Assembly: GCA_965649765.1 (NCBI GenBank)
Contig: OZ287750.1
Span: 31,682,001 to 31,746,000, forward strand
Length of the DNA stretch: 64,000 bases
Direction of reading: 5' to 3'
DNA from: Bispira polyomma
Lineage: Eukaryota
In this document: one piece after another, positions 18,683-62,884 of the stretch
Numbering within the stretch: position 1 is the first letter of the stretch
Layout of the letters: each line of letters opens with the position of its first letter
Notes under the pieces: generated by a model
What the model saw: only the letters and a program-made list of their open reading frames with translations
Told to the model about the DNA's origin: nothing
The model's database searches: none
Program-made: the position numbers and the translations under genes

Positions 18683-19841
18683 TTATATATGCTCCAGTGT
18701 AGTTTTAACGTCGCCTGTGAGGATCACGCCTGGTCATCTTACTTGCTAATCTAGTTAGGGCATGTTTTTTAGTCACTAATCCTGTGGCTATATGGAAACA
18801 AAAACAGTAAATTTTATTTCTTTACAAGGCTCGGTTATATTTGTTTCAACATTGCCAATTAAAAGAGTTCACTTTTATGAAAGAGTGCTTATTAGGATTT
18901 CCAGTCAACCCTTGTTCCAATTTATTTCATATATAATAAAATGAATAGTCATTGAAATGGTTTAGGTTCCCTTAACCATATTTATATGTTTGTACAATAT
19001 ATAAATTATGCACACAGACAAGAAGAAATAATTTACAAAATTTTCACATGAAAGTCTCCAAGTTTCCACCTCTATTGAGATCTCTGTATAAAACTGTGTA
19101 GGAGATTTACCATCTCTAAGTTGGAGAATAAAATAGACCAGAAAGATTAATTACATTCCATCAAAGGTAAAATAATAATATTATTGCAAAACTGGACTTA
19201 CTTATTTTCTGAATCATAACTTCGAGCAACACTCCCATAGAATAGATATCAGCTGAGTTATTGTACCTTCCTCTTTGCCTCACTTCAGGAGCCACATAGG
19301 ATGGTGTACCACATTGTGTACTGAAGTAGATCTGCTCAAAATAAGTAATAGACCCAACAAAATTTCCAATCCCAAAATCAGCCAGTTTGACAAGCGGTAT
19401 TGCCCGAGGCAAACCCATCAATAATATGTTGGCTGGTTTAGTGTCCCTGTGAATCACACCCTTGGAATGAATGTAGTTCACAGCATCACATAATTGTACC
19501 ACCAGCGAGATGACATCCCCAACAGAAAGGCAAGTTATTTCCATGTAGTGTTTCAAGTCACCAAGGTCACAATGTTCCATTCAAATTAGCAATGCTCCAT
19601 CACAAGTGCTATTAGCTCCAACAATTTTTACGATATTTCTGTGATATCCAACCTTTTTCAGTGTGTCCACTTCTTTCAGTGCTTGCTTTTCTATGTGACC
19701 ATTGGGTAAGTTCACAACTTTCACTGCATAATTATCATCGTACCGCCAATATTTAACAAAGTAAACAGATCGAAAGGCTCCTCTGCCAAGACACTTATAT
19801 TTCTCAATATCCCTCTTTTTCCAAGAGTTTTTGTTACCCAT
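18683..19841 (-). pseudogene. Kinase paralog K3, probable pseudogene (exon 1 19841-19202; exon 2 18781-~18683)
   Basis: Starts MGNKNS. In-frame TGA at 19581-19583 replaces the Trp of IWMEHC. Donor A|GTAAGT at 19201; acceptor CAG| at 18782. Exon 2 reads RLVTKKHALTRLASKMTRRDPHRR, then a small deletion shifts the frame before the ancestral VKTTLEHI* tail. Confidence 0.85.
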
Positions 19842-37044: not shown

Positions 37045-39180
37045 CATTGCTGTTACACTGCTTTCCCAGCTGTATTTGTTTGTGACGAACCTCGCTGCTC
37101 ATCTCTGGACTTTTTCTATTAGCTGGATGTCTTTGGCTAAGTGTGGATCCCATATGGCACAGCAGTAGTCTGAAACTGACCTCACTAGGGTGATGTAAGC
37201 GAGTTCTTTCAGTTCTGACGGACACTGTTTTAGGTTTCGTTGTAGAAATCCTGGGGTTTGGTGAGCCTTTCCTGTGATATTTTTTGATGTGGTGAGACCA
37301 TTTCAGGCCTTCACTAAGCAGGACACCGAGGTAGGCATTTGTGGGAACTAGCTCTAGGGTGTGACCACTTAGTGTGTACATCGAGGTTAGTGGTTTCTTT
37401 GAGGTTGCAATACGGAGTAGATAGTATTTTTGCGCATTGAACTGCGCATACCCCATTCCTCTCCCCATATTTGTAGAGCATGCAGGTCTTTCTGGAGAAT
37501 GGTTTGGGCTTTAGAGGATTTGATATCGCAGTATAATAGGCAATCATCTGCAAACATGCACACAGTTGAGTTTACATGAAGTGGAAGGTCATTTATGAAT
37601 GTCAGGAACAAGAGCGGTCTAAGCACAGTGCCTTAAGGCACACCAGATTCTACTTGCACAGATTCTGAGCTGTCACCGTCTATAACTACACACTAGTATC
37701 TTGTAGTTAGGAATGTCCTGATCCAGTGGTTTATAGGTCCTCTTATTCCATAATGGTCCAATTTGGTTAGAAGTCTTTTATGCGGTACTGTATCAAATGC
37801 TTTGCTGAAGTCTAATACAGCAGCATCAACTTAGTGTTTATGGTCGTATAACTGGAGGAGGTCGTTACAGGTAAGAAGTAGTTGAGAGGCACACGAATGA
37901 CCCTCCTTGGTCATATGTTGGTCAAAGTGGTTCAGGATGTGTTTTTTGATGATATGTTCGAGTAGTTTACATGACACACATGTGAGTGATACCGCTCTAT
38001 AATTCACTGCCTCATGACGGCTTCCTTTTTTGAATATTGGTGCTATGTTGGCATTTAACCAATTAGTTGGCAAATCACCAGTATCCAATCATTGTCTAAA
38101 AATTGTTGATATTATGGGTACTATTTGTTCAGCACAGTTTTTTGAGGATGTGGTTTGATAGGTTGTCTGGTCCAGAGGCTTTGGAAGTGTCAAGTGTACT
38201 TAAAAGATTTCTGACCCCTTGTGTGTTGATGGTTAAGTGACCTATTGTTTGTTGTTTAGGTCCAAGGATGTTAAGAATTTTTTGTGGATTGATCTTTAGT
38301 GAATACTGATCGAAACTGTTCATTTAATAGTCGTGCCTTGTTATAACTGTCACTATACAGGGTGCCTTGTTGTTTAATTGAAGCTACACCTATACTGTCT
38401 TGTTTCTTGGATTTGATGTATTTCCAGAATGTTTTACTGTTCTTCTTGTTGAGGCTATCTTTCAATGATTGCTCAACATAGTTCCAGTGTGCTTTTTTGA
38501 TTGCATCTTGTGTTGTTTTCGTGTGTGATTTGAAGACATTCCAATCATTTTGGTTGTTTGATTTCTTGGCTTTGTTGTGCAGTCGATGTTTCTTTTTCTC
38601 TTCGCTTGGTGACGATACTGAATCTCTAAGAGAGGCTAGCATACTGAATGAATTACTTAAGTTGAGTTCGTATGAGTGAAATAATGTACCACTGTAGTTA
38701 TGAGTGTCATATTTTACACATATCCAGGATACAGATGTATTCTGCAGTCTATCAAATGAACTGCTGCAGATTTCAATGCATGATTTGTGATACCATATGT
38801 CACAATCGTCACACCATACTGCTCTGTCAGACCAGTTTACAGAATTTTCACAAAATCCGCAGGGGTAGATAGTAGGTTCTGGCCTTGGGTTGGTGGAGAT
38901 ATCTCCATTTAAGATCAGCAGTAAAAAACTGAGTGAGGTTGATGGTCTATTTTCTGTGATGTGGATTTGCAGGGCAAAATTTAGTTTTGAGTTGGTAAGT
39001 TGAAGTGTCCATAGTGCTGCGAGATGGTTTGGGTATATGGACCCTTTTGGTGTATAACATGTTGTGCTAGTTTTGTATATTGCGAGTAGCAGTATGATTA
39101 CAACGATGGTGTTCATGTTGATTTTTGGGGGCAGTGGCAGTTGATGAAGTTACTCCTCCATGGCGGCCATCTTTGATTTG
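37045..39180 (-). mobile_element. Decayed LINE (RTE-X/CR1-like) with PHD finger; endonuclease domain deleted
   Basis: PHD CGFC...CDDCDIWYHKSC; RT motifs KASGPD, NYRAVSLTCVSCKLLEH, LDFSKAFDTV and FADDCLLY in shifted frames; YY1-like AAGATGGCCGCC at the 5' end. Confidence 0.85.
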
Positions 39181-42931: not shown

Positions 42932-44510
42932 TACACTCTGGTGTCAGCCCTCCTCAGTTCTGGTACAAGGTTAGTGGGGGCCAATTAGGCCACCTGGGGT
43001 CATGGGGCCACATATAAAAGGCTTCAGCGCCTAACCAGCGCCATCATTAAATTTTAGTCTCTCAACACACAAGAGAGTTTTTACAATTGGGCGTCTGCTA
43101 CCCGGTTTTAATTGTTTTAAGTTTCAAATATCTCTTAATATGGCATCCAAACAGGTGTACCAATGTAATGTGTGTATGGAGAAGCACGAAAGACCTGCAG
43201 GCAAAAAGTGTTGCTTTGTAATGGTGGACAGCGTCGCTGATGAAGTACCCACGACTGGTCCTGTTGGAACATCTGATTCTGTGTCAGAGCAAATATTATT
43301 ACAGTTACAATCTTTAAACAACAAGATGGACAATATGGACCAGCATGTGAAGGTTACCGAGGCGGCACTGTGCCAACCCAGCGACAATCAGGCATGTAGT
43401 ACTTTACCTATTGTTAGACCTCAAACTAGTAGTACTGTTTGTAGTGAGAGTGTGGCCAAGGTGCCCCAATCAGTAGGTGAAACTGTTATTCCTTCTCTAG
43501 ATTACTTACGGTCTAATGCTAGTTTGCAAACCCAAGTCGACCAACGGTTGTTGCAGCTACAACAACTGAACGAACTCACTGGGTCAGGTAAACTAAAGTC
43601 CCAGCGGGGCGGTACCGATGCCCCAATTAAACGTGCTGTTGATTGGTGTCAAACTTTGTATTATCTGGTGCTAAGAAAACCCTACGTCTAACGTACGATG
43701 ACTTAATCCTCGTTCAGTTCACGTCAGGTTTTGTTAGGTGTGTCCAAGAACAAAAGTCCCAATAGGTTAAAGAATCCATACTTGAATATTTAGCCAATCT
43801 CATGGATGATGCCCAATATTTTTCGTGGGAGGCCGCCAAGGCCTCACACGCGATATTGCTAACAAACATGCAGTTAAATCGTCTTAAGTGGACGGATGTA
43901 GAAAAGGTTGATCGGATCCGTCAGGCACATGCTCAGCGCCATATATCCAGTAGTACTAGCAGTAGTCATAACTCCAAGGCTGGTGGTAATAGTAAGGGCA
44001 AAAGTCAAAGTAAAAGTCAGGGAGTCAATTGTCGATTTTTCCAGGAGGATACCTGCAAATTTAATGCAAGTCACAGGACCTCTGGACAACTATTCAAACA
44101 CAGTTGTGAATATTGTGAGGGTGCGCATCAGACAAAATTATGTACCAAGAAACTAAGGGCCCACTGCAGTAATGCAGTGGGTATGCCTGTATTTACTAGA
44201 GTTGTATATAGTTCAAATTTTAAAGATTTTAAATTGTTTTCTAATTGTTTTCTAATTTTAAAAAATATGCTTGTTGTGACCAAAAGGTGAAATTGTCCTG
44301 AAGTGATGTGTTGAAAAAGGGAAATAAAAATTTCCCAGTGACCAGTCCTGCTGTGGGTAAAATGGTAGGAAAGTACACACGTCCTCTGGTAGTTGTTAGA
44401 AGCAAAATGTATGTGAATAAATTTTCAACTGATCGGGGAAATGTTAACAATAGAAACAAAGGTGTGTACTCTTCTAACCAGGTCAACAAGTCAGAAAAGC
44501 ACAACAAGGG
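42932..44510 (+). mobile_element. Ngaro-like YR retrotransposon copy C (5' end, frameshifted gag, start of pol)
   Basis: The 5' region is homologous to element B (GGTGTCAGCCC..CTCAGTTCTG...GGGGGCCAATTAGGCCACCTGGGGTCA). The gag pieces 43140-43691 and 43802-44155 are very similar to B gag, with CCCH and CCHC-like fingers. Confidence 0.88.
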
Positions 44511-44514
44511 CTAT

Positions 44515-45775
44515 CCGTCGATTCCCAGAGTTTTATTATTTTTCATATTTTTTAATGCTAAACTTAGTTTTTTAAGTGTTATGGGACCTTCCAATTTAGA
44601 AACTTCTACAAGTGAAAGTTTATTTTTATCGTCGATTGAGCCTTCCCAATTTAAATCTTGTAAATCTTTTTCACTGTTTGCAAAGAGTTTTGCATAAAAG
44701 TTCCTTACTCGGTCAAGTATCTCTTTTTGTAATGTTACTGTATCACCATTTTCGAGTTGATTCTTTTTTATTTTTTTTCTACATATCTATATTTTTTTAG
44801 ATTACAGAAATATTTACTGGGTTTCTCGTTTAAATGTAGGTTCTGTACCATAGATCTTATCATATGGCTATTCATTTGGGACTCTCTTAAACATTGTAAT
44901 TCTTTTTTTTTACTTTACATGCGTTCTAAAGATTCAACGGTTTCCATGTTTTCTAAAATCTCAATCTCAACAGTCAGCCTCTTTTCATCTTGCAGTTTTT
45001 CCCTTTTAACTTTAGTTGCAAATTTGATTGTATCTCCTCTAATTCTTGGGAAAAGCATTTCTAAGAACATGTCATCGGGTATAGTAAATTTAATATCGCT
45101 ATCTGCAATTGAAGCTAAGTTGCTTAAATTATATACAGGTAATGCATATTGTTTTTTTATTTGTACAATAGATTCATTTATCATTCCTAGATAGTGAGGA
45201 TTTTTTAATTGACTACAATTAAGTCTCCAAACTCCTTTACCTTTTTTAAAGTTATTAAGCGTGATATCCATGTTTATATCTTGAATGGTCACTCCGGTAC
45301 CCCGGCTTTATATTACAATATTGAGTCAAGTCAGTTAAGGTGTCTGAAACTAAGAAGTAATCTTGTCGCGCCTGTTTTACTGGATTTCTCCTTCACCAAG
45401 TATATCTCTTAATTGTTAGATTAAAGTATCTGAAGGCATCATACAATTTAAATTGGGTCATTATGTATAAGACAGCTGATCTAGATTGGGGGTTATTTAT
45501 CCCCACATAATTATTTGAGTCTAGCTTTGGGTCAAGGATCAGGTTGAAATCTCCACATATAATTGTATATGTTTCATATGATTCCTCCATATATTCCCTC
45601 AATTTAAAAAAAAATTGTGGATTATCTGTATTTGGCGCATAGATGTTTATTATTCTCAAGGAAAAATCTGCCAGTTGCAAATCTATTAAAAGTACATTAC
45701 CAATACAGTCTTTAACAGTATTTTTCACCTTGAACTCAAAGTCGTTTTTTAAAATGATTGCCACTCCAGGGAGGG
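44515..45775 (-). mobile_element. L1/Tx1 LINE fragment (endonuclease and linker)
   Basis: GVAIIL, INIYAPNTD, GDFN, KGKGVWRLN, EKPSKYF; frameshifted. Confidence 0.85.
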
Positions 45776-45785
45776 TATTGATATA

Positions 45786-45967
45786 CCTGATCACTAGTTA
45801 AAGAGTGTCTTGTTTCATTACTGCCATAGATCATCGAGAAGACATCACTCCCTGAGGTGATTAAGTCAGGATTGATACCAGATCACTAGGTAAAGAGTGT
45901 CTTGATTCATTACTGCCATAGATCATCATGACGCCATCACTCCCTGAGGTGATTAAGTCAGGATTGA
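45786..45967. repeat. Two tandem ~91-bp units
   Basis: GATCACTAG(T/G)TAAAGAGTGTCTTG...CATCACTCCCTGAGGTGATTAAGTCAGGATTGA occurs twice. Confidence 0.85.
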
Positions 45968-46599
45968 GTTTTATTTCAAAACCGGAAAATGAACGGTGGC
46001 ACACTTTGAATGGTCTTGACAACACCTACCCAGCTTTATTATTATTGAAGCAGTTATTGATATGTCATCCTCTAATATGCTCATTATCTAGTTCTATAAC
46101 ATAGCCTGCGTCAGTAGGCAATGTCACGTTCAAATCTTGTCCAAGTATCTTATTCAAGCAAGGGAACTATCAGTACTAGTGAGAGTTAAACTAGGGACCT
46201 TCCGATCACCAGACCACCACAATAACCCAGTTTATACAATCTGCTCTCTCCTTCTTCCTTTCTCCTGCCACAAAACAAAGTGCTCACTAAAAATTACAAG
46301 TTTTGTGAACTGAAATTGCAAGCACAATTAGAAGAGTGCAATGTGCAAACTTCAGTGATAATGCACGGAGGATGATGAAAGGTGGTCTGTCATATTACAA
46401 TTATTGAACTACTTTCCAATCATTTATACCAACTAACATAGTGTTGATGACTGTCTACTTGTTAGATTCTAAACAAAAATGGCATGTATGATTTGATCTG
46501 TAATCTGCTGACCTATCAAACATTTATAGAGCGCCAAATGGCATCGCTGAATTTTGTCAAGCTTGTACACAATATAACAGAGGGCAATTTGGACTCTTT

Positions 46600-47202: not shown

Positions 47203-50200
47203 TTTTTTTTATTATTTTTTTTTTAGACATACATTTTAATATCACACTAAACAGAGACATTACACTAAACATGATACAGGTATTAAGCATACGTTTGAAT
47301 ATTACACTAAAGAGATACATTACACTAAACATGATACAGGTATTAAACGTACGTTTGAATATTACACTAAACAGATACATTACACTAAACATGATACAGG
47401 TATTAAACATATGTTTGAATATGACACTACATGAATACAAACACAAAAAACGAAATAACAATACCACAAATGACAACAATTTTTTGTACATTTTGGTTGC
47501 CAGACAGTTAATGTATCAGTAATTTTACTTTATCCTTTAAAAATATGTCACTAAATTGCATACTTTACTATTCTTCTATAATTTCGATGAAGATGGCTTT
47601 TTAAATATTTACACTTTAAATAGTCATATATTCCACTTTATACTTTCAATTACTTTATTTAAATTGTTATCAATTCCTTCATCTGGTTTTATATTTGACA
47701 ATTTATATATTTGAAATTTATTCTTACATATATTTAGAAATTGAGGCAATACAAAGTATTTTTCTTTGCTTCTACAGTGGTTTATGTACCATTTGCCCAG
47801 TATAAAAAACCAATTACCAATTTCTGGCTTATCTTTTTCATCTAAATTTTGATTTAGATTTATTCCAAAAATAATTTCACATATTGTCCATTCTGGCCTA
47901 TTTCTCAAGTTAAGAGACCCTGTTAGCCATTTCTGTAAACTTTCCCAGAAAAGTTTGCTATATGCACACAAGAAAAAATGATGTTCTATTGTATCTATGT
48001 GTTTACAAAAATTGCAGAAGGGATCATCCTTTATATTCCACTTATATAAATTATAATTACAATTTATGATACGATGTATAAGTTTATACTGAAAAGATTG
48101 TAAAAAAGTCTCGTTTATTAGTCTGTGGGTGGCTAGGAAAATATTTTTCGAAGGAGCAACTTCTAGAAATAGGAATAAATCAGCCCATGTACTTATTGCT
48201 GTCGGTTCTTTCTGTTTAATACTTATAATTTTCCAATAAAGAGATTTGTTGATTATTTTGTCAAGTTTTATTAATTTACTCTTTATCCTGATGCATGTTT
48301 CTTCCTCTATGTAAGTACTTAATGAGTGGCCTTTGATCTTTCGTTTCCAAGAAGCAGGAATTGCAGAGCAAATAATATTGCAATTATGTATGCTAATGTT
48401 CCAGTTTAACTTTTGTCTAATTGCCTGAAATTGAAGAAGATTGCCCATGTCATCAGTTAAGCTTTTAACTCTTATGTTGTTTGCAATGTGTTTAGGGAGG
48501 TGGAAGAGTCTATAATCTAAAGACTTGTTGTTAGAGCATATATATTTGTTGTCAAACAGCAGTTCACTATATATTTCATCTACAGGTATAGGAGATCTGC
48601 CTTTCATGAAAAAACCAACACTCTAATAACTGTTTATGGAAAGGAGACAGGCATTTATTACTACATGCTTGAGGTAATTTATTATTTATCTTATTTTTTT
48701 CAATATTTAACATGTACCATGTTAATGTTTTCCAGTGTTCTTTTTCTCTTTCTTTTGAAATTAAACGTTTTACCCAGTTTATTTTTGCCAAGATGTGTAC
48801 GCTAAAGATATCAGGCATTCTAAGACCTCCTTCTGAATAGTTGACTATAATAGAATCTTTTTTGATGGTTTCTTATTCCATAGAAAGCTGAATTGCATTT
48901 TATCTAATTTTTCCAAAAAATATTCTGGACAGTAACACATAGAAAATATGTGACTTATTTGAGGTATAATCAGAGATTTAATTATTACAACTTTTCCTTT
49001 TAACGATAGGTGCCTACTTCCCCATATATAAAAGATCTTTTCTATAGATTTTAACTTGTTTTCAAAATTTAATCGAAACATCTCTTTATGATCATGAGAG
49101 AACCAGATCCCTAGTGTTTTGAAAGGCTTCACACTAAAAGTTAATTTATTTAATTCCTTGGGCACTTTACATATTTTAATTTTAATTTTACCGATAGGTA
49201 CCACCATTGTTTTTGATAGGTTTACTCTTAGCCTGGAGCAGTCTTCAAATCGGTTTAAGGAGGCAATACGTGTTACAATCGATGAGAGACTACTTAAAAA
49301 GAGTGTAGTGTCATCTGCCAATTGACAAATTTTGAGCTCTATGTTTTCTACTTTAATACCATTAATTAGGCTGTTACTTTTGATATGGACTGCCATAATT
49401 TCTGCCACAAGAATAAATAATAGTGCAGACAAGGGGCATCCTTGCCTGATTCCCCTGGTCAAGTTAAAGTAAGCAGAGAAAAAGCCATTGTTACCCACAC
49501 AAAACTTATTATCAGTATACAATAATGTTACCCATTTCCACCAATTTTCTCCGAAATTAAAAGATTTTAGACATTTCAATAAAAAAGGCAATTCTACGTT
49601 ATCAAATGCTTTTTCCAAGTCTACTAATAATATGTATCCAGGTATATTTTTTATGTCACAATATCTTAAAATGTCTTCTATGATTCTTATATTTTGTCCT
49701 ATATATCGGTTTTTATATATCCTACTTGGTCATTACAAATTAATTTTGGTAGCACTTTCCGAAGCCTGTTTGATAGAGCCTTTGTTAGTATCTTATAGTC
49801 TGCATTGAGAACACTTATTGGTCTCCAGTTACTTAAATATCTCACATCTTTTCCATCTTTTGGTATAAGAGTAAGAATTCCGTACTTTTGATCATTTGAT
49901 AGCATACCACTAGACCTAAAGGAAAAGGTAAAGCTATTATAAAGCATATCTTTTATATCAGACCAAAAAAATTTGTAAAAATTGGTGGTGAAACAGTCAT
50001 TACCTGGACTTTTTTCATTCGGTAATTATTTTAATGCCTTCAGGATTTCATCTATTTGTAACATATCTTCACAAATATTCTTTTCTATATCATCCAATCT
50101 CTTAATGTCTGGATTAGTTAAAAATATTTCATCTATGTTAGAGGACTTTGTAACTTTTGTAGCATTCAGGTCTTTATTAAAGTGTCTTTCTTCTTCCAAA

Positions 50201-51325
50201 ATACTTTTGGGTTCTGTAATCTCTTGGTCATTTGTTTTTATTAACTTTTTAATGTATTTATTGTTATAATTCCTTTTCTCTAAATTAAGAAAATATTTTG
50301 TATTTTTCTCTCCTTCCTCCGCCCATTTCGTTTTAGACCTAAGAATAATGCCCTCTTTTTTTTCCCTTTCAAAATTTTCCCATTCTTGTTTCCTTTCATA
50401 GTATTCATTAATTTTATTTGGATTTTCTCCAATTTCATTTTCTAGTTTTTCTATTTTTTGTAACACTTCTTTTTCCTTTTCTCTTTTTTCTCGTGATTTT
50501 ACCTTTGAATAAGATATTGTCACAGTCCTAATTTGACACTTTATAAAATCCCACAACGTATTTTTATTATCAATAATTACCTCATTTCTAATTAAGTCAA
50601 TTTCTTTTTTGATCAAATCGACATATACAGTGTCATATAGCAACTTATTATTATATTTCCAGTATCCAGGCCCCCTTTTCTGAGTTTCATTTACTTCAAA
50701 TTTGATATAAATTAAACTATGATCAGATCTATTCCCAGGTTTTATGTTGCATTCTATTACGTGGCAGGTGCTATGTACTGACATTAACCAAAAATCTAGT
50801 CTTGATTGGACCAATTGAGCCTTTGTTCTTTCTTTTCTTGTAAATTTAAGTTCGTTTGGGTATCTAATTCTCCAGATATCAACTAGATTAAATTCTTACA
50901 TCAGACTCTCTAAGTACTTTGTATACTGAGATGGTTTCTCTAACACGCCTCCCCGTTTATCTAAGTCACTATTCAAACATGTATTGAAATCACCTCCAAC
51001 AATTAGGTGTTGACAATCATAATCTTTAATTATTTCTTTTAATTCAAAGAGAAACTTTAGCTGCAAATCCACATGATCTTTAGTAGGTGCGTATACATTT
51101 ACAAATGTGAGAGATATTCCCTCTATATCACAGACCACGAGAAGTACCCTCCCATCTTTATCCCTTGATATTGTTTTTATGTCAAAATCAAAATTTAGAT
51201 TGGGGGGAATAAGTAAAGCTACTCCCCTGCTTTGACTCGTCCCATATGAAAACACTATTCCCCCCCCTCTTTTTCCCAGAGTCTTTCATCATCCGTGGTA
51301 CAATATGTTTCTTGCAAAAAGATAA
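47203..51325 (-). mobile_element. L1/Tx1-clade LINE, nearly complete ORF2 with frameshifts, 3' UTR and A-rich tail
   Basis: IIFLQET, SRGVALL, NVYAP, GDFN, SRLDFWL, SDH, WRPIS, EKAFD, GIRQGCPLS, LADDTT and C-terminal CxxC...H...C. A 60-bp tandem repeat lies at 47235-47430. Confidence 0.92.
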
Positions 51326-51405
51326 TTTCAGTTCCTCGGAGTAGTGCCTGAGGAAACTCAATTAACCGAACAAGTCATAGAAAGACAATACTGCGGTTAA
51401 ATATA

Positions 51406-51411
51406 TTTATT
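51406..51411 (-). terminator. Polyadenylation signal of element A (equivalent at 57817-57826 in B)
   Basis: AATAAA in the conserved context ATAGTAGCTG...AATAAAT..ATTTAACCGCA in both A and B. Confidence 0.6.
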
Positions 51412-51799
51412 TCATATTTACAGCTACTATTACTAAGATATTTATGTACAGTTCTTTGACATGATATGCACTTTGAGTGAGCATAAGGTCCCCTTAAGTC
51501 AACTGAGTTTAGGACTTTAGGTTAAACCAGAATGAATTTAAGTCACCCTAACTAAGAAAGAAGTTGACTTTAGAAATTTAGATTTAAGTTGAAACTTAGA
51601 TATGACTTTGAAGATTAACAAATTAAAGTTTGACTTAGGTTTTAAGTGGAACTTTAATTACATGAGTACAATATGTACTTTAATAATACAGGGGGACCTT
51701 ATGCCCACAGTTAATTCATTTAGTTTACAGGTAATTAATATGCTACTTGCACTGTTAAACTGACTAGATGTTACAGTGATGCCACCAAACCCCAAAATT

Positions 51800-52785
51800 T
51801 TAGTAGGTATTTTGTAGAATAGTTTTGAAGGAATCGGCAACTTGAGTACCAGCATTGGCAGAATCCGAAATGTAACGCCAGACGCAATCGGACGTCCAGG
51901 TGCCGTGCCTTTGGATGTCCTGAATGGTGACATTATTGTTAAAGGCAAAGGTGGCACCTGAACACCTGAAAGCGTGAAAGGTCAAGCCAGAGTACTGCGG
52001 GCCCAGCATTAGTAAGACATTCTTAAGATGCCTCCGAACCCTAGTATCAGTAAGGGGCAACCAAATGGCATTCTGCTTAAATTGAAACAAGGGCAGATCT
52101 TTCCCTTTAGGAGAAATAGCCAAACAGTTTTTTAAAGCTTGCACCGGACATAAGATGGAATTGGTTAAAGCTGGTATGGTGAGCAAGCGAACGGCATTAT
52201 TGTTTTGAAGGGTTTTAGACCATTTAATAATGAGGACAGCGTACCCTGGCTTGAAAAGAACATCAGCCCTTGCAAGCTGCTTAAGAGGAGAGTAAGCAGC
52301 AACCGAATGAGCACAGAGGTTAGACAGCCTCAGAAAGGAAAAGAAACTAGTAAGATAGACTGCTTTAAAAATTTGACCCATGTAAGTACTGTCGCACTTT
52401 ATAATAAGAGACCTCAACAACTGAACATCGAAAATTGACTTAAGTTTTACTTGCAACGGTCTATGCATCGCCAAAGCTTTATTATAATAGGTAATTCTTT
52501 TATCAGAAAAAACATCTACGGATATATGGAAGAGGACACACTTAGCCTTAATGGCAGCAAGATGATTAAGAACTTGACTAGCCGACACACCATTAAACGT
52601 TAAAAACTCTAAATAAGCTAAGAGATATAACACAGTCACCTTTTGAGGAGGCCAAGACATAAAGGCTCCAAACGCCAAGAACAGCCTGAACATTCTGTTG
52701 TAGGCTCTGTTAGTGGCAGGGGTGAAGGCAAGTACAAGTCTGTCACAAGCTTGCTGCATCAAGGAGATGGCCACAGGTTGTATAT
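51800..52785 (-). CDS. Tyrosine recombinase of element A (probably a spliced second exon)
   Basis: Full catalytic set: R (FLRLSN), K (KWSKT), HxxR (FHAFR), H/W (HGTW), Y (WRY). A splice acceptor GTTTTCTAG| lies at 52786. Confidence 0.92.
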
Positions 52786-52808
52786 CTAGAAAACATGACT
52801 AACACGTG

Positions 52809-55238
52809 CTATATAAGTGAGTTAACTTTTAATAAACTGCGGCAAGCAGGCAGCCACTGGACAGGCCCAGCTAACCTAAATAACGACAAATGGTCGGCTT
52901 CAGTTTCCTTCCATCTTGACAGCAAATCTGCAATTTTATTTTCTTTACCCAAAATATGTATGACAACAATATCAATACTAAACTTGCTAGCTAACATGTA
53001 TATGTTCCTAGAATACGTGGCTAATTCGGGATCTCTGGTGCGCCCTGTCCGTAAGACACTTACAACTGCCTGATTATCACACCTGACCAATATTCTACGA
53101 CCTTTCCATTTATGAACCCACAATTTTAGAGCTACCAAGATGTTAAGCATCTCCAAAGAAGCAATATTGACCTCAGTCATTTCTGGAGGAATGTTAATTT
53201 GGTACACTTGTTTCTCAAAAATACCCCCCATTCCAGTAAGGCAGGCATCCAATTCAATCTCACCAGTTATGGGCTTAGGCATGAAAAAAGAGACTCCATT
53301 GAAGTGTTCTGCAAAAGTAGTAAACCAATTCAAGTCACGCCTGAATTCAGGGGTGATGGCGATATACTTTCTGGTGTAATTATCTCGTAACAGCTCCAGC
53401 ATCCTATTCAAAAAGACCCGAGCATACTTTACACATTTAGAGATATATAATAACAAGCCAAGTAAAGACTGAAGCTCTCTCTTAGTGCAGAATTTTTTGG
53501 ATTTCCATTCGTGACACTTATCTTTAATTTGACTTAATTTCTCACCCGGGATGGAAGTAGTACCTCGAATGGTATCCACTACTATGCCCAGGCAGACGAC
53601 CTGCGTGCTGGGAGGAACCAATTTTTTCTGACTTACTGTCAACCCCAGCTCTTGTAGCAGTTCTTGCAATCTGAGGAAAGTTTTTTGAATTTTGCTGGGA
53701 ACAGAAATAGCCAAGAAATCGTCGATGTAGTTGTGGACATTATGATTTTCAGAGTGCATTATGAATCGCACGGCATCCGAAATTCTCTGAAAAATCGTGC
53801 TACCATTACGATATCCGAACGGCAGAGATCTGTCCACATAATAGGACTTCCACTTTAGACCTAGTAGGTCAACGTCGCCAGGGTCAATGGGTACGTGGCG
53901 GAACGCCCTACTTATATCGACCTTGAATATCTCACATCCTCTCCCCAATTTTACCACCTCACTAGTGAGATTATCAATGGACGGATAAGACAGTAGAAAT
54001 TCAACGCCCAAGTAAGAGGAAGGAGAAGCTCCCGCATTAACCGACCCCCCTTGAGGCCAACTCAAGTCTACAATTACTCTCCGGTTAATTGAGTTCGGTT
54101 TGTGTCTCGTCATAAGGGGAGAACAGTGCAGGCCCGGAAGAGGAGGTTTGTCAAATGGCCCTAACATAGCGCCGAACTCACATTCTTCTTTCATATAAGC
54201 CTCTACATGCTGTGGATATTCCTCAGCCGACTTATGGCTACTCTCACTGGATTCCAATTTTACTGAATGATCGACGTCCAGGGGAAATCCATATTTTATA
54301 AGGAGAGGCAATTGCCAATCCCAGTAATTTTTGAGGTATTTTTTCCAACTCTCGGGTCTTAATTGAGAGGGAACAGGGATTTGCAACCCTTCATAATTAT
54401 GCCTGCCATCAGCCCGAATTAAGTCATGCATTTGCAAAATGGAAAGTTCAGGCCCTCCCTCACCCTGATCTGCCATCTCACAGCCCAGAGCAGAGAGAGG
54501 AGTGAATCCATATGCATGTTGGGTTTGAGCTTGCCATTTTCTGTAAGTAGGATTTGAGGCAGCCTTAGCTAACATGCCTTTCTTATTTACTTTCTGTTTC
54601 AAGGCACAAGAGTACTTATCGGGACATTCGAGACTTTCCGGGCTATCTTCGGAAGCAGTTTTACTCCTGCCCTCGCCTCGGTCAACGGGCTTGTCACTAG
54701 GGCCAGAAAGGAATCGAACGGGCTCGTCCACATTTTCACCGTCATCGACCGGCAGCGACACTAAAGCTGTATACCTGTTAGCAAGAGGGAGGACAGCCAC
54801 ACCTCCATTGACCCGCCTCTCTTCGCCCCCATTCAACCTCGAGCACTTGACCTCCTTTGTTATCACCTTGCCTTGTTTCGCACCCCGGCCTGGCTTCACA
54901 ATGGAAGTCCATTGTCCCACAGAGGTACCAAGAGGCCTCAACAATGTGTCACTTTTGCCACGTAATATGTCTACCTTACTCTTGTCAACCCTTGCCTGTT
55001 TTACCGGCACCTCAGTAACACTTCTATTTACACACCCATACTTTTGAACTGGGCCATTCTTTTGCAACGCCTGGCTATAACTCAAGCCTGGCCTAGTGCC
55101 CTTCACATATTTACACGTTTTTCGCCACACAGACCTCTCAAATAATTGTGCACTCTTAAATTCAGTATTATAAACAAACCTACATTTGTGCTTCCCACTT
55201 TTAGCCACTGCATTAACGCAGTGGCCCCTCAGTTTTTT
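52809..55238 (-). CDS. pol: RT-RNaseH (pol) of element A; in the -1 frame relative to gag, probably reached by frameshift
   Basis: RVIVDLSWPQGGSVN, KVDISRAFRHVP, LPFG, NYIDDF; RNaseH ELDACLTG, LEMLN, CDNQAVV, NKIADLLSR. The frame is open from the slippery heptamer at 55238-55232. Confidence 0.93.
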   Translation of the reverse strand, partial: KKLRGHCVNAVAKSGKHKCRFVYNTEFKSAQLFERSVWRKTCKYVKGTRPGLSYSQALQKNGPVQKYGCVNRSVTEVPVKQARVDKSKVDILRGKSDTLLRPLGTSVGQWTSIVKPGRGAKQGKVITKEVKCSRLNGGEERRVNGGVAVLPLANRYTALVSLPVDDGENVDEPVRFLSGPSDKPVDRGEGRSKTASEDSPESLECPDKYSCALKQKVNKKGMLAKAASNPTYRKWQAQTQHAYGFTPLSALGCEMADQGEGGPELSILQMHDLIRADGRHNYEGLQIPVPSQLRPESWKKYLKNYWDWQLPLLIKYGFPLDVDHSVKLESSESSHKSAEEYPQHVEAYMKEECEFGAMLGPFDKPPLPGLHCSPLMTRHKPNSINRRVIVDLSWPQGGSVNAGASPSSYLGVEFLLSYPSIDNLTSEVVKLGRGCEIFKVDISRAFRHVPIDPGDVDLLGLKWKSYYVDRSLPFGYRNGSTIFQRISDAVRFIMHSENHNVHNYIDDFLAISVPSKIQKTFLRLQELLQELGLTVSQKKLVPPSTQVVCLGIVVDTIRGTTSIPGEKLSQIKDKCHEWKSKKFCTKRELQSLLGLLLYISKCVKYARVFLNRMLELLRDNYTRKYIAITPEFRRDLNWFTTFAEHFNGVSFFMPKPITGEIELDACLTGMGGIFEKQVYQINIPPEMTEVNIASLEMLNILVALKLWVHKWKGRRILVRCDNQAVVSVLRTGRTRDPELATYSRNIYMLASKFSIDIVVIHILGKENKIADLLSRWKETEADHLSLFRLAGPVQWLPACRSLLKVNSLI

Positions 55239-56296
55239 GCCCCTTTCTTATGACATTCACTAGTCTGGTGGCTACCCTCACATGTCTCGCAATGATGTTT
55301 ATATAACTGACCTCCAGTATTGTGAGAGCTGGGAAATCGACAATTTCCTTCCTGATAAAAGCGACAAGACATTGCACCCTTACGACGTACAGACCTACTG
55401 CTACTCGAGTTACTTGGCCGTCCATTCGCCCCAGAGGAATTTCTACTGTTCGACACATGGCGCTGAGCATGGGCTCTTCGGATTCGATCCATCTTATCTA
55501 CCTCTAGCCACCCCAACTTATCCATCTCCATACTTGTCAATACGACTGCATGGCAGGCCTTAGCTGACTCCCAAGAAAAATCCTGGGCATCCTCCATAAG
55601 ACCCCCCATGTAATCCAGCATGGCATTCTTCACTTCGATCGACTTCTCCTCGTGGGCAATCCGAGCGAAACCACACACCCATTGCAACACGGTTAACTCA
55701 TCGTAGCTAGGCCGAGACTTAGAACTACCCGTGAGCACATAGTTTTGAGGCCAGGCGGTGACCTTTCTTACCAACACCTCATTCGCCCCACTACGCTGGG
55801 ACTTCAGTTTACCTTGCGAGGTGGTCTCATTCAACGTCTTGAGATCTTTCAATCTCTGCTCCACTTGGAGCTGTATTAGGGCATTCTGGTTTAAAAAATC
55901 TATGCCAGGAATTATACTGTCGGACGTAGCGATAGATGGGCTCTTACCTACGCCAGCAGAGCAACTAGCAGGCCTGTCAACACTAGAACTGATCAAACTA
56001 CTACTTGCCTGAACGGGGACCTGATGACTGGGCTGACTACTGGTGAGGTTCGTCGCCAATGCGGCCTCATTCCTCTGAACCCGCTGGTCCATTTTTACCA
56101 TTAACTCGTTCATCGAGTGCAGTTGGAGTAATATCGCGTTCGTAACTGCATCGCCAGACTCACCGTTTGCGGGTTCAGTGTCAGAGGCAGCATCGATCTC
56201 CTCCCCAGAGGCAGAGTCAACGGTTGCAATAACGCAATTTCGCCCTACAGGACGCTCATGTTTGGTTAAACAGCGACTACACTCATAGACAAGCAT
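55229..56296 (-). CDS. gag: Gag-like protein of element A (355 aa)
   Basis: N-terminal CxxC...H...C, WPQNYV/YDELTVLQWVCGF core, and C-terminal CRFYQEGNC...H...HCETCEGSH zinc fingers; homologous to B and C gag. Confidence 0.85.
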   Translation of the reverse strand: MLVYECSRCLTKHERPVGRNCVIATVDSASGEEIDAASDTEPANGESGDAVTNAILLQLHSMNELMVKMDQRVQRNEAALATNLTSSQPSHQVPVQASSSLISSSVDRPASCSAGVGKSPSIATSDSIIPGIDFLNQNALIQLQVEQRLKDLKTLNETTSQGKLKSQRSGANEVLVRKVTAWPQNYVLTGSSKSRPSYDELTVLQWVCGFARIAHEEKSIEVKNAMLDYMGGLMEDAQDFSWESAKACHAVVLTSMEMDKLGWLEVDKMDRIRRAHAQRHVSNSRNSSGANGRPSNSSSSRSVRRKGAMSCRFYQEGNCRFPSSHNTGGQLYKHHCETCEGSHQTSECHKKGAKN

Positions 56297-56434
56297 AACT
56301 AAAAGGTGTTTCCACTAAAATACTGTAAAATATAAAACATATACACCACCAACAAAATGGCACCCAAACAAAATTTTAAACTAGTTGTTGCTCTGCTGAC
56401 GAACGATAAAGGCGGGAGATTTTGAAAAGGAGAG

Positions 56435-56444
56435 CCTTATATAG
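56435..56444 (-). promoter_or_regulatory. TATA box of element A (equivalents at 62791-62800 in B and 43011-43020 in C)
   Basis: TATATAAGG / TATAAAAGG at the same relative position upstream of gag in all three copies. Confidence 0.6.
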
Positions 56445-56589
56445 TCGTACACCATCCCACAATAGTAGACCAGGCTGGTACCCCAGAACTGAGGCCACGA
56501 ACGCTGAGAGCGTTCGCTTACAGTTTTAACTATTATCTAATTTAGAAAGTTACGGAGTAAATAGTACATTCTACATTTTTACTGCATTG

Positions 56590-57743: not shown

Positions 57744-60700
57744 TTCATTTCCCCGGTAACAGGCTAGTGATCCGAGGTCAGGAAGACAAGGTAAGTAGAC
57801 ACAGAATGCGGTTAAATTTATTTATTAGACTAAATGTTAGCAGCTACTATGTACATGGTGAGTCAAAGTCACCTTAAAATTTACTCAACAATGAAGGCAA
57901 CTTAAGGTCATCTTACATGCAAAATGAAATTTAGGAGAATAAATAAATTTGAGTAAGGTCACCTTACCTTATAATTTGTATGTTCATATTTGCTAGCCCA
58001 GAACGAATTGTTCCGGAGTAAGGTGACCTTAATTCCAAAGTAGAGTTTAGAGAGAAATAATTAGAAGTTAAGGTTACTTGAAAGAACCAGCTACTGTACT
58101 GTAGCATAAGTTGAGAATTAAGTATTCGAATTGATTACAACTGATATGAGTTGGGATTACTTCAACCACAGGCTACTGTACTGTAGTGCTGAAATGCGTG
58201 ACAGCCATTAGTTTCAGTCTAAAGTTACACCCCGTGAGACATGCAATTACATAGTACGTTTAACATTAACTGAAGAACTTACAAGTTACTTTGAATAGTG
58301 TAATTACATAATACTGTTGGGGTTAAAAGAGCAACTTAACTGCAATAGCAGTGGCAGTATATGCCAGGGATAAATAACGTTAAACTTATAACCAGCCAAA
58401 CCCCAATGGTAGGAATTAGGAAGTAGGTGATGAGGATAGGTGTTGCCTAAAGGAATCAGCAACCTGTTGTGCCCCATCAATAGTATCGGTGACATACCTC
58501 CAGATGCAGTCCGATGTCCAGGTGCCATGGTGTTGTATGTTTTGAATGCTTACATTATGATTAAAAGCAAAGATGGCACCGAAGGTGTGGAAGGTAAGTC
58601 CAGCACCTTGTAAGTAGAGTCTAGATAAAATGTCTCTCAAATGACGACGCACTCGAGTGTCAGTGAGTGGTTGCCAGTGATTATTACTTTTGAACTGAAA
58701 TAGAGGCGAATTTAACTCAGAAGGGGTAATTTTTATAATGTCCTCCAGTGCCCTGACTGGGCATAACATTGAGCTCGAAATTCGAGGAATGGAAATCAAT
58801 TTAATTTGGTTGTTGGTCTGCATGGTTTTGGACCATTTAACAAGTATAACAGCTTTCTCAGGCTGGAAAAATACATCAGAACTGGATAGATGCTGAAGGG
58901 GAGAGAATTGAGAAGCTGCATGGGGAACAAGATTCGACAAACGAAGAAATGAAAAGAAGCTAGTTAAATACAGAGCTTTAAACACGAGTCCCATGTATGT
59001 AGAATGACACATGGAAACAATGTTCTTGAGAGTATCAATGTCGAAAATCTTTTTAAGTTTTACATTGAGGGGTGCAGTTAATTTAACAGCTTTTTGGTAG
59101 TAAGCTATACGAGGGTCACTGAAGGCATTTATATCAATGTCATGTATTATGGACTGAGCCCTGATTGCAGACAAATAATTTGCCATATGGGGAGGTTTTA
59201 CTGAATTTAAATGTAACATTTCCAAGAAACATAATAAATAGAGCGCATTCACCTGATATGGAGGCCAATACATAAATACTGTAAAAGCCAGGTACACACG
59301 GTACATGGCCTTGTAGGATCTTGCAGTAGATCTACAGAAGGCCAAGTGAAGCTTATTGGTGGCATTACGATACAGTTGGTTTTGCAAGGGAGTCTTCTCT
59401 GAAATACAGGAAAATGACAGGAAGACTGATGCAAAGACGTTTATATAGCATTGTTTAGTATTAGATGTTCATGAGAAACTGGACACCACTGAGCTGCACC
59501 TACAAATTTCTGCAACTGAACACAATCCTGGGGCGAACCCTTCCACCTGGAGAGCAAAATCGGCAGTTGTATTGTGTTCGCCTAGGATGTGGATAACCTG
59601 TAATTCGACATCATACTGACTAGCTAACATGAATATGTTTCTTGAAAACAAAGCCAAAGTACTGTCTCTAGTTCTACCATGTGTAAGCACACTCACCACA
59701 GCTTGGTTGTCACATCTGATAAGAACCTTCTGAGCATGCCACAAAGGACCCCACAACTTTAAGGCTACAAATATGTTGAGTATTTCTAATGAAGCAATAT
59801 TCAAAGTTTGTAGTTCGACAGGAGTGTTTAGTGCATATACTTTTTGGCCAAACCCCCTCCCCTTCCCCTGCCTGTGAGGCACGCATCTAGCTCAACTGTT
59901 GCAGTTACGGGGTTATGGTGGAAAAAGGAGACACCATTAAATTTTTTGAGAAAGGTACGGAACCAGTTTAAGTCCTTCAGAATTCTGGGCTTACTTCAAA
60001 GGTTTTTGCTATGTAATTGCTTCTAAGCAAATGCAACATACGATTCAAAAAAAATCTTGAGTACACATTTTGAAAACGTATAGCAGGGAGCCGAGTAGAC
60101 ACTGGAGTTCCCTTCTAGTACAGTATCTTTTACCTGACCACTTATCACACATGTTCTGAATACTAGACAATTTGTCCTCTGGAATTGAGGTAGTAAAATC
60201 AACCGTATTTATAACAATACTCAGACATGTAACTTTAGTGTTAGGAGGGACTAGCTTTTTGTCACTCAGGGTCAAACCCAGCTCGGCCAATAAGTCTATG
60301 AGTCGCTGGTAAGTGCCATAGATTTTGGAGGGTATCGAGCAACAAAGGAGATCGTCGATATAGTTGACGATATGGTGACCTTCACCTTTCATTATATATC
60401 TGATACCATCTGACATTCTCTGAAATATGGCCGAGCCGTGCTTGTAGCCAAAAGGCAGCAAACCGTCCATGTAGTACCCCTCCCAGTACAGGCCTAATAG
60501 ATTTAGTTCTTTCGGGTCTATAGGCACGTGCCTAAAGGCATGGCTGATGTCTGCTTTAAAGATTAAAGAGCCTCTACCTATAGCAAGTACCTGAGAAGTT
60601 ATCGTGTCAATGGAAGGGTAGGTTAACATGAACTGTCTGCCCAAGTATGACTCAGGACACACGGCAGTATTTGCTGAGTGACCTTCAGGCCAACTCAAGT

Positions 60701-62884
60701 CGATTATGACACGACGGTTGGTAGAACTCGATTTGTCGCGTGTCAAGAACGGTGAAGTGTGTAATTGAGGAATTGGTGGCATATCAAAGGGACCATACAT
60801 TGCCCCAAAATCACATTCTTCTTTTAAATAATGTTTGACGTGTTCCGGGTACTGATCAGCAGAAGCGTGATTCTTGAGCTCAGACTTAAACTCATGTTGG
60901 TCCACATAATCGAGGGAAAAACCAAATTTAATAAGCAATGGGAGTCCCCAATCCCAGTAGCCTCTCAAGTAATTAGACCAAACTGTGGCATTTAGCTGAG
61001 AAGCAACTGGGATCTGGAGACCTTTGTAGTTTGGACGCCCGTCCTGCTTAATACGCTGGTGGAGCTTTAAATCATTGACAGGACGCTGATTTTCAGAATT
61101 GTCACATATTTTATGACCCCAAGATGAAAGGCGGATGAAGCCAAACTTGCCACCACTCTGGACATCCCATAATTTGAAGGTGTCACAATCTTTTGCATTA
61201 TTTAACCTTTTCCTTTTATCAGTAGCCCGGCACATGTCTAACGCATACTTGTCATCTGACAAGTCAGTTTTGACATCGACCTTTTCATCAGTCAACGAGG
61301 ACACCACGTCATTGTTTTTGTTCACAGGCGAATTGGTCACACAAAGGAGGGGCTCAACACAATCACCCAATTTGGCACCTTTTTCCAAACAATGGGTGTC
61401 AAGCACCCCAAACCTATTAGAAAGTGTTATGCAAAATTCATTGTTGGCACCCTCCGTGTCGCCCCCCTTTCTTTTGGACAATGTCCTTTTCTTGTTTTGT
61501 ATGGCAATTAAGCTCTTTGGACACTATTAGTGAATTACTTTTGACACCCCTTTTGTCTTGAGGCTTTACAACAGGGCAATGGCCTTCTGGCCAACTGGCT
61601 CGATTTGTCTCACACACAGTTTTATGAACACCTTTATTGATATGCTTTCCCAACAACTCACCCGTTTTGTTTACATTATGGACTTTGCACAAATTCTTTC
61701 TGGGGGACCCCGTCCCCAATTTCGCCCACATCAGAATGTTTGAAGAGTTGACCCGAGGTTCTATGAGTAGCATTGAACCTACAGGTCCCCTCCTGGAAAA
61801 ATCTACAAATCACGCCCTGACTCTTGCTGGCCAACTTTGTTTTATTACCAACGGATTTGGTACCCGCACCACTATTGGAACTGTTCGATATGTGACGTTG
61901 GGCATAGGCCCGACGGATTCGATCGACCTTGTCCATGTCGGTCCACTTAAGGCGGTCCAATTCCATGTTGGTTAAAAGGATGGCATGGGAGGCTTTAGCA
62001 GCTTCCCACCAAAAGTCATGTGCGTCATCCATAAGATTGGCAAAATATTCCAACATTGCTTCCTTAATTACTGGGGATTTTTGTTCTTGCACACACCTTA
62101 TGAATCCCGAAGTAAACTGAACCAAGGTTAAATCGTCGTAGGTGGGCCTAACCTTTTTGGCCCCCGAGAGCACGAAATTTTGTGGCCAATCGACTGCCCT
62201 CTTGATAGGAGCATCCGTACCCCCACGTTGGGGCTTAAGTTTACCTGCTCCAGTCAGTTGATTGAGCTGCTGGAGCTGGAGTAGCCGTTGGTCTACTTGG
62301 TTTTGTAAATTTTCGTTTGACCGCAGAAATTCTAGAGACGGAACTATTGTTTCCACCACTGGTTCAATTATACTTGGGGTAACAACATTGGGGACTACAT
62401 TAGCACTGGTAGTAGGTAAGATACTAGCCTTATTGGCGATGGGTGTGCACAGCGCCGCCTCCGTCACCTTAACGCGTTGATCCATGCCGTCCATTTTACT
62501 ATTGAGGGACTGTAATTGTTGTAAAATGAGCTCAGACACTGAATCCGACGGACCAGCACTGGATTCAACCGTAGGTACATCCTCGGCGACGCTGGCATCA
62601 ATAAATCTACATTTTTTGCCCATAGGGCGTTCGTGTCTTCCCATACATGTATTACACTGGTACTCTCGCTTTGGAGCCATGACAAATTTTAAAAGCTTTA
62701 AAACATTAAAAGGGTAGTAACGCCCAATTGTAAAAGCACTGTCCCTTTGACCAGTTAAAGTTTTAATGATGGCGCTGACTGGCCCCAAACCCTTATATAT
62801 GTGCCCTCGTGACCCCAGGTGGCCTAATTGGCCCCCAGTACTCTGGTAGCAGAACTGAGGGGGCTGACACCGAGGTGTCAGCCC
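57744..62884 (-). mobile_element. Ngaro-like YR retrotransposon copy B, defective
   Basis: gag from ATG 62680 with the gag-pol junction deleted near 61733; RT 61481-60045 (NYIDDL) with frameshifts in the RNaseH part; YR 59398-58416 lacks the Arg of HxxR (FHTFGA). Confidence 0.92.

Follow-up and report, generated by a model that had tools for sequence, protein, structure and literature searches.

A predicted programmed -1 frameshift signal between gag and pol of Ngaro-like retrotransposons in the genome of Bispira polyomma

Introduction

In the tyrosine recombinase (YR) retrotransposon described here, the frame encoding reverse transcriptase (RT) together with RNase H follows gag in the -1 register and has no AUG near its beginning, which raises the question of how this frame is translated. 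The element, copy B, lies on the minus strand (56522 to 51329) of a 64,000-nucleotide (nt) stretch of the Bispira polyomma genome (NCBI GenBank assembly GCA_965649765.1, contig OZ287750.1, positions 31,682,001 to 31,746,000), hereafter the window, and is composed of the repeat A1, gag, pol, a recombinase open reading frame (ORF) and the repeat B1. An initial annotation, made from the sequence alone, had proposed that ribosomes shift into the -1 frame between gag and pol of this element and so make a Gag-Pol polyprotein. The comparison of the junction with its relatives throughout the genome supports this proposal at the level of sequence, and we consider it highly probable that programmed -1 frameshifting at this site makes Gag-Pol.

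Results

The gag/pol junction of copy B

The gag ORF (55229..56296, minus strand; 355 amino acids; stop-to-stop frame 55229-56314) encodes CCCH/CCHC-like zinc fingers followed by K-N-stop, and its terminus reads ...GGG GCA AAA AAC TGA. It includes the slippery heptamer A_AAA_AAC in gag phase (55232..55238, minus strand), behind which stand the 6-nt spacer TGAGGG (55226..55231), that is, the gag stop TGA plus GGG, and a hairpin (55203..55226, core 55225-55204) which folding and covariation lead us to predict as the frameshift stimulator. The arms of the hairpin, GCCACTGC (55225-55218) and GCAGTGGC (55211-55204), enclose the 6-nt loop GTTAAT, and a G.U pair lengthens the stem to 9 base pairs (bp). 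Heptamer, stop, spacer and hairpin are all present where the initial annotation had placed them. The 52 nt after the heptamer (55231-55180) fold at -19.7 kcal/mol (z -4.16), a stability equalled by none of 200 shuffled sequences, and among the 920 X_XXY_YYZ heptamers found on both strands of the window only the one at the gag end has a 30-mer of -15 kcal/mol or lower behind it.

The pol frame (52809..55247, minus strand), an 812-codon frame with RT and RNase H matches, is in -1 relative to gag and stays open through the slip site, as had been claimed. It begins with a linker of about 200 codons, followed by RT at ~53975-53583 and RNase H at ~53153-52911, and its first in-frame AUG is codon 220 past the slip site (54575). 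Soon after the hairpin, 600 nt upstream of this AUG, the frame encodes a motif R-x-x-Y-N-x-x-F (55158..55181, minus strand) that is kept across families and in homologues outside this assembly.

Conservation of the heptamer and the stem

Gag protein searches of the assembly (1.04 Gb, 75 contigs) returned 250 loci, which were reduced to 205 distinct copies; grouped at 82% linkage these form 37 families, with Gag 39-100% identical to that of copy B. Heptamer, hairpin and -1 register have been retained in the intact relatives of this set, contrary to what the initial annotation had named as a refutation. The sequence AAAAAAC is found near the stop in 181 of the 191 resolved gag ends, in 174 of them in gag phase; 32 of the 37 families carry the heptamer, and the five families without it each consist of one decayed copy. 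AAA AAC may be preceded by GCA, TCA, GTA, TTA, ACA, CTA, CCA or TAA, a codon that ends in A in every one of the 30 family representatives that are in phase (picked among heptamer-bearing copies), while elsewhere in gag Lys is AAA in 322 of 527 cases and Asn is AAC in 126 of 305. Exact patterns searched in the whole genome gave 686 + 88 matches of the type with the stop directly after the heptamer and 385 of the type with the stop one codon later, the two main junction types; reversed-pattern controls gave none. By these counts the family has more than 1,100 copies in the genome.

The position of the stem is more constant than that of the gag stop. The gap between heptamer and CACTGC is 8 nt in both main types, the arm starting at the ninth nucleotide, and it stays there while the stop moves from codon +1 to codon +2 or into the loop. 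In an alignment of 25 hairpin-type representatives, from which families without the CACTGC stem are omitted, 92% of the cells are paired. The covariation across genomic copies that the initial annotation had suggested as a check was found as double changes in three stem pairs: 14 cells in three outer or top pairs are changed on both sides, a number not reached in any of 500 shuffles, while four pairs never vary and two deviate by mismatch only. Two families keep a structure of another kind 8 nt after the heptamer. In family 14 (four copies) the stem is another one of 9 bp (-19.4 kcal/mol), whose loop contains the stop; in family 12 (five copies; L237, L238) two 9-bp helices cross between +9 and +58 as a predicted H-type pseudoknot.

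Register of pol and selection on its product

Among the 19 long loci in which the pol frame has at least 800 codons, 18 have it in -1, and in 17 of these 18 the frame is open from before the gag stop; in the sole intact copy with another register a deletion has removed the hairpin. Where a family has a repeated linker length (599-1010 nt), it gives -1 in 12 of 13 cases. The ratio of nonsynonymous to synonymous substitution rates (dN/dS) of the linker in the -1 frame is 0.36-0.96 with a median of 0.57 (13 pairs, one skipped), and that of the RT core is 0.10-0.22 in the pairs with a usable value, apart from one decayed pair at 0.53.

The same arrangement can be recognised outside this genome, in hosts which may be close relatives. 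From other assemblies 35 Gag homologues were collected, and of the 26 with an intact zinc finger 24 end in KN or in KN plus one residue. Of 120 Pol homologues listed, the 40 longest include four that start with KKLxxHCxNAV, which is the peptide encoded across heptamer and hairpin, and five more with starts of a KKR type. No related locus emerged from scans of metagenome contigs, viral contigs and prokaryote genomes, and an Atlas search with Gag gave unnamed clusters only, with recognition below threshold.

The same frames bear on the possibility that translation of pol begins independently, at an AUG of its own or a near-cognate codon, whether through reinitiation, leaky scanning or a shorter transcript. 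Some families do have an AUG 32-140 nt from the gag stop, and in one lineage the pol frame contains an AUG or GUG that precedes the stop by 16-25 nt. However, the first AUG is unconserved, ranging from +32 to +1166 nt and falling inside the conserved pol block in three intact copies; conserved pol-frame residues stand upstream of it, and in two families with a stop codon ahead of the heptamer (see below) the -1 frame opens just 7 nt before the stop. An independent start of pol is on these grounds very improbable. The initial annotation had stated that pol lacks an early ATG, which holds for the window copy but not for the sister families, with their scattered AUGs.

Several observations weigh against frameshifting in its simple form. 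When all scored copies are taken together, including decayed ones, pol is in -1 in 109 of 176, in 0 in 37 and in +1 in 30, and without the young family -1 is left in 66 of 128. The linker is only weakly constrained, and its freedom from stops is partly due to the picking of intact copies. The inner six pairs of the main stem type never covary and may therefore be kept for their sequence and not for pairing, and they include an AG in phase with a conserved predicted splice donor in the middle of gag. A G directly 5' of the six As occurs in 3 of 686 matches, so that the preceding codon is NCA, NTA or TAA; a simple model of slippage predicts no such constraint, and a bias in the E-site codon has been reported for yeast signals. 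A further objection comes from several lineages in which an in-frame TAA stands right before AAA AAC.

Lineages with a UAA immediately ahead of the heptamer

In copy B and in most families the gag frame has no stop ahead of the heptamer. Where an in-frame UAA does stand there, it should halt ribosomes before they reach the slip site. Such lineages (L261-L278, L281-L330, L334-L371 and L389-L428) include the relatives of a further copy in the window, copy C, whose junction (44147..44181, plus strand) has a shortened A run, the stop TAA and the hairpin CCCACTGC-AGTAAT-GCAGTGGG (44160-44181) with C-G outer pairs. This hairpin and the sequence AAGAAAC (44147-44153) had been noticed in the initial annotation, which took the latter for a decayed heptamer and the former for a case of compensatory change. 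The closest relatives of copy C read AAG AAA GGG TAA AAA AAC TAA, so AAGAAAC is a deletion product in which the Lys codons were fused to the last C, and point decay of the heptamer is ruled out; the compensatory change is there, the C-G outer pair being a trait of the family.

A tree of the copy C relatives, from which duplicates and six loci lacking a clean junction had been removed (some 25 of the loci had been picked not blind to their state), has 84 rows, of which 28 have TAA, 40 a sense codon and 16 are frame-shifted. TAA is fixed in four subclades and in a ladder that gives rise to a young sense-codon burst; the state changes 9 times on the tree against 21.9 times when shuffled, and since it follows the tree a homopolymer error of the assembly is ruled out as its cause. 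The TAA-first pattern is in gag frame in 27 of 30 matches, and the second stop, after the heptamer, is retained in 88 of 94 pattern matches. Between TAA copies dN/dS is nevertheless 0.10-0.14 for pol and 0.11-0.15 for the recombinase at dS of 0.2-0.6 (0.22-0.60 for pol), and pol is thus under purifying selection. Their pol tree agrees with the gag tree, and one UAA-first copy has all three frames unbroken. In a second UAA family, picked by protein likeness, 14 of the 26 rows listed have TAA and 12 have TCA, the two states being mixed across the tree; a third family has a clean TAA in 3 of 8. Recurrent mutation together with movement in trans, the latter known for the RT of DIRS-1 (PMC7192593), would also fit both.

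The UAA-first lineages require a step beyond plain -1 slippage, which cannot account for them. The likeliest candidate, at somewhat less than even odds, is readthrough of the UAA followed by the normal slip; in the UAA-first copies 12 nt separate the stop from the start of the stem. Next in order, and somewhat unlikely, comes a one-tRNA -1 slip at the stop itself. In 5 of 6 groups (three of them related) the TAA follows a codon that could re-pair after moving back one base, compared with 6 of 30 sense families, but the model is weakened by the copy C family, whose A_GGG_UAA offers no re-pairing codon and whose pol is nevertheless under selection (dN/dS 0.10-0.41). The same values rule out that the copy C family is non-autonomous. 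It is unlikely that the UAA-first lineages consist of pol-dead copies moved in trans or arose by recurrent mutation, and a small chance is left for some other explanation. TGA stands before the heptamer once, among the three matches preceded by G.

The 6-7 As at the junction would also allow RNA polymerase to slip and to add one base, giving a minority mRNA with gag and pol in frame. We find this hardly credible, as the run is in gag phase, is followed by an invariant C and has a structure at 6-8 nt, all of which suits re-pairing of tRNAs and not polymerase slippage, and an upstream UAA would block the product of such an mRNA too.

Predicted splicing of the recombinase ORF

The tyrosine recombinase ORF (51800..52798, minus strand) is in +1 relative to pol and does not overlap it in copy B, and among copies the overlap is not fixed. 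The residues R, K, HxxR, H/W and Y, which we take to be the catalytic motifs of this enzyme, are all present. The ORF has no Pfam or PDB match; its Atlas neighbours carry Phage_integrase on 12-29% of members with scores of 0.98-0.99.

Conservation points to a splice donor in mid-gag and to an acceptor at the head of this ORF, both in phase 1. The predicted donor AG/GTAAAC (55807..55815, minus strand; the slash marks the exon border, with the intron starting at 55812) is AG/GT or GG/GT in 23 of 24 scored families, and the Gly at this site is GGT in 23 of 24 families, compared with 116 of 338 other Gly codons of gag. The predicted acceptor, a T-rich tract with TAG/AT (52784..52806, minus strand; exon start 52785), corresponds to a YAG behind such a tract at one column in 16 families, and a crude pick of the best tract gave phase 1 in 19 of 23 families. 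Removal of the predicted intron 55812-52786 would yield a fusion of the N-terminal part of Gag (Gag-N) with the recombinase. In three sequencing runs on the contig the coverage was even and no GT-AG joint was seen; the kind of run is unrecorded, and they provide no evidence either way.

The donor, conserved and in phase 1, could also serve pol, if it were joined to the invariant GCAG/TG in the 3' arm of the hairpin and the hairpin served to damp this acceptor. The in-stem AG ends at +24 past the heptamer, in phase with pol, family 14 has TTAG/G at the same +24, and splicing into the stem would account both for the UAA-first lineages and for the invariant inner stem. However, the in-stem AGs of 24 junctions do not stand out from background AGs (median -6.0): they score from -3.4 to -12.5 in an acceptor model built from 16 recombinase acceptors, which themselves score -3.6 to 11.3 when left out one at a time, 15 of the 16 at 1.0 or above. 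Another AG stands just upstream of the in-stem one in 14 of the 24, family 12 has none in the stem, and the UAA-first copies have no conserved phase-1 acceptor downstream. Splicing into the stem would moreover leave the heptamer and the fixed spacing unexplained, and we regard it as very unlikely that pol is expressed in this way.

The element and its surroundings

The repeats of copy B are A1 (56372..56522, minus strand; 151 nt), a split direct repeat at the 5' end of the element with a boundary common to most family copies, and B1 (51329..51794, minus strand; 466 nt), where copy B ends without A2, spacer and B2. Full-length sisters contain A1 (151 nt), the ORFs, B1 (466 nt), A2, a non-coding spacer of 731 nt and B2. 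The A1/A2 and B1/B2 pairs are 97-100% identical in 5 of 10 extended loci (L251-L255), locus L258 has B1-A2-B2 together with A1, and the spacer measures 0.7-1.1 kb (6240-6970 in L251; L254, L255 and L258 likewise). A hydrolase ORF in the spacer is rejected, the longest frames being 62 codons (L251) and 77 codons (L254). Several copies, including copy B, stop exactly after B1.

No methyltransferase was found after RNase H: pol ends about 33 codons beyond the RNase H match, and Pfam at E values up to 5 gives RNase H only. The domain scan gave no match to a protease in the element. A DIRS1-like assignment is rejected, the repeats being direct and not inverted and a methyltransferase being absent. 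Ngaro elements are defined by the order A1-ORFs-B1A2B2 with gag, RT/RNase H and recombinase (PMC8547959, PMC4157794, PMC3266345, PMC6681497), and by the features shared with them, namely split direct repeats, gag, RT/RNase H, the recombinase in last place and no methyltransferase, the element is Ngaro-like, although a PAT-like element that had lost its methyltransferase would look like Ngaro (PMC4157794). The elements of B. polyomma differ from described Ngaro elements, in which B1A2B2 are adjacent, by the 731-nt non-coding spacer between A2 and B2. They also differ in the lack of a hydrolase ORF and in a recombinase ORF that has no fixed-frame overlap with pol and is predicted to be spliced and not frameshifted. 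A preference for target sites is rejected for the 5' flank, where 45 copies have no 4-mer in common.

The repeats bear on a last alternative, namely that the palindrome CACTGC-N6-GCAGTG is mainly an element of DNA or RNA replication (recombinase half-sites, packaging or pairing with the 3' end). Its invariant 6-bp arms and fixed 6-nt spacer presumably resemble a tyrosine-recombinase site, and in families 4, 6, 13, 15 and 24 the B repeat ends, at the B1/A2 joints, in GGCACTG, identical to the 5' arm of the hairpin in these families. In other families, however, B ends in GGAACTG or otherwise, families 12 and 14 lack the palindrome yet keep heptamer, spacing and structure, and a role of the palindrome in replication leaves the heptamer and the -1 register unexplained. 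We therefore give very little weight to such a role as the main one; at the DNA level the palindrome may have it as a second function beside frameshifting.

A decayed relative, copy A, occupies approximately 57750..62880 of the minus strand, and its junction is deleted near 61737. The window also contains decayed LINE-type elements with endonuclease, RT and zf-RVT matches (47624-51328 on the minus strand; 44300-45980 and 29177-32345 on the plus strand), one of which adjoins the end of copy B, as well as three protein-kinase domain fragments (3348-4247, 16301-16765 and 19161-19580) and a PHD-finger match (38271-39149), all four on the minus strand.

Discussion

The data suggest the following course of expression. 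Most ribosomes would end at the gag TGA and release Gag, whereas some, delayed at the hairpin, would move back by one base on A_AAA_AAC and continue in the RT/RNase H frame, so that a Gag-Pol fusion with a predicted length of about 1,160 residues would result; we infer the slip, the pause and the ratio of the products from the observed anatomy and conservation of the junction, its -1 register and the selection on pol. A separate mRNA, in which the predicted mid-gag donor is spliced to the acceptor downstream of pol, would provide the recombinase, so that a single transcription unit could give Gag, Gag-Pol and a Gag-N/recombinase fusion. A wider model is plausible though tentative: two routes would make three proteins, the hairpin of some lineages would drive bypass of the UAA and then the -1 slip, and switching between the one-step and the two-step form would tune the Gag:Pol ratio.

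The signal is of the type used by retroviruses and Ty3/Gypsy elements, in which -1 frameshifting depends on X_XXY_YYZ and a 3' structure. A_AAA_AAC is one of the eukaryotic heptamers most prone to shifting, and stimulators begin 6-9 nt downstream (PMC5009743; DIRS and tyrosine recombinase are not mentioned in the excerpts of this paper). In contrast to retroviruses and Ty3/Gypsy, the element described here has neither protease nor DDE integrase, both of which are absent from YR elements (PMC3783388), and in some lineages a stop precedes the slip site. Since the element has no protease of its own, the predicted Gag-Pol fusion would not be cut by one. For Ngaro elements programmed frameshifts were proposed at ORF overlaps by Poulter and Butler in 2015 (quoted in PMC13003380), but that proposal concerns the overlap of pol and recombinase, whereas the signal described here is located between gag and pol.

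The UAA-first junctions resemble known readthrough systems. Stems located 8-12 nt past the stop stimulate readthrough of the alphavirus UGA, of the murine leukaemia virus UAG and of the UAA of Drosophila headcase, and in some alphaviruses the stop comes and goes among relatives (PMC3159437), as it does in the UAA-first lineages, whose stem distance of 12 nt falls within the reported range. Unlike in these systems, readthrough alone would end two codons further on, and the -1 slip must follow. A comparable case is the gag/pol junction of Sireviruses (Copia superfamily), which has a conserved short stem with a 4-nt loop and, in a subset, a blocking stop, and which has been called an open puzzle (PMC5009743). 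There, however, the register of pol is +1, and it is the pol frame, on the 3' side of the gag stop, that contains the extra stop, unlike here.

The available portions of PMC3783388, PMC9210276, PMC3212892 and bioRxiv 2022.06.16.496473 describe no gag/pol signal. In the mostly open literature searched, supplements aside, we found no heptamer or stimulator reported for a YR retrotransposon, though older work on Ngaro elements may already propose a gag/pol frameshift; nor did this literature, with subscription papers mostly outside it, describe a spliced YR recombinase. No stop placed before a slip site turned up in a retroelement, although no dedicated search of the literature was made, and no experimental test of the expression of later ORFs in tyrosine-recombinase retrotransposons was met with in the literature covered.

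From this point of view, a known mechanism would operate here in an order of retroelements for which it had at most been proposed before, which argues for Gag-Pol frameshifting beyond LTR (long terminal repeat) elements and retroviruses, while for the recombinase splicing is predicted where a frameshift had been proposed. The genome of B. polyomma represents a natural mutational series for one junction, with over 30 families, 3' structures of three kinds, stops that move and stops that precede the slip site. The UAA-first junctions within this series may reveal a two-step recoding cassette.

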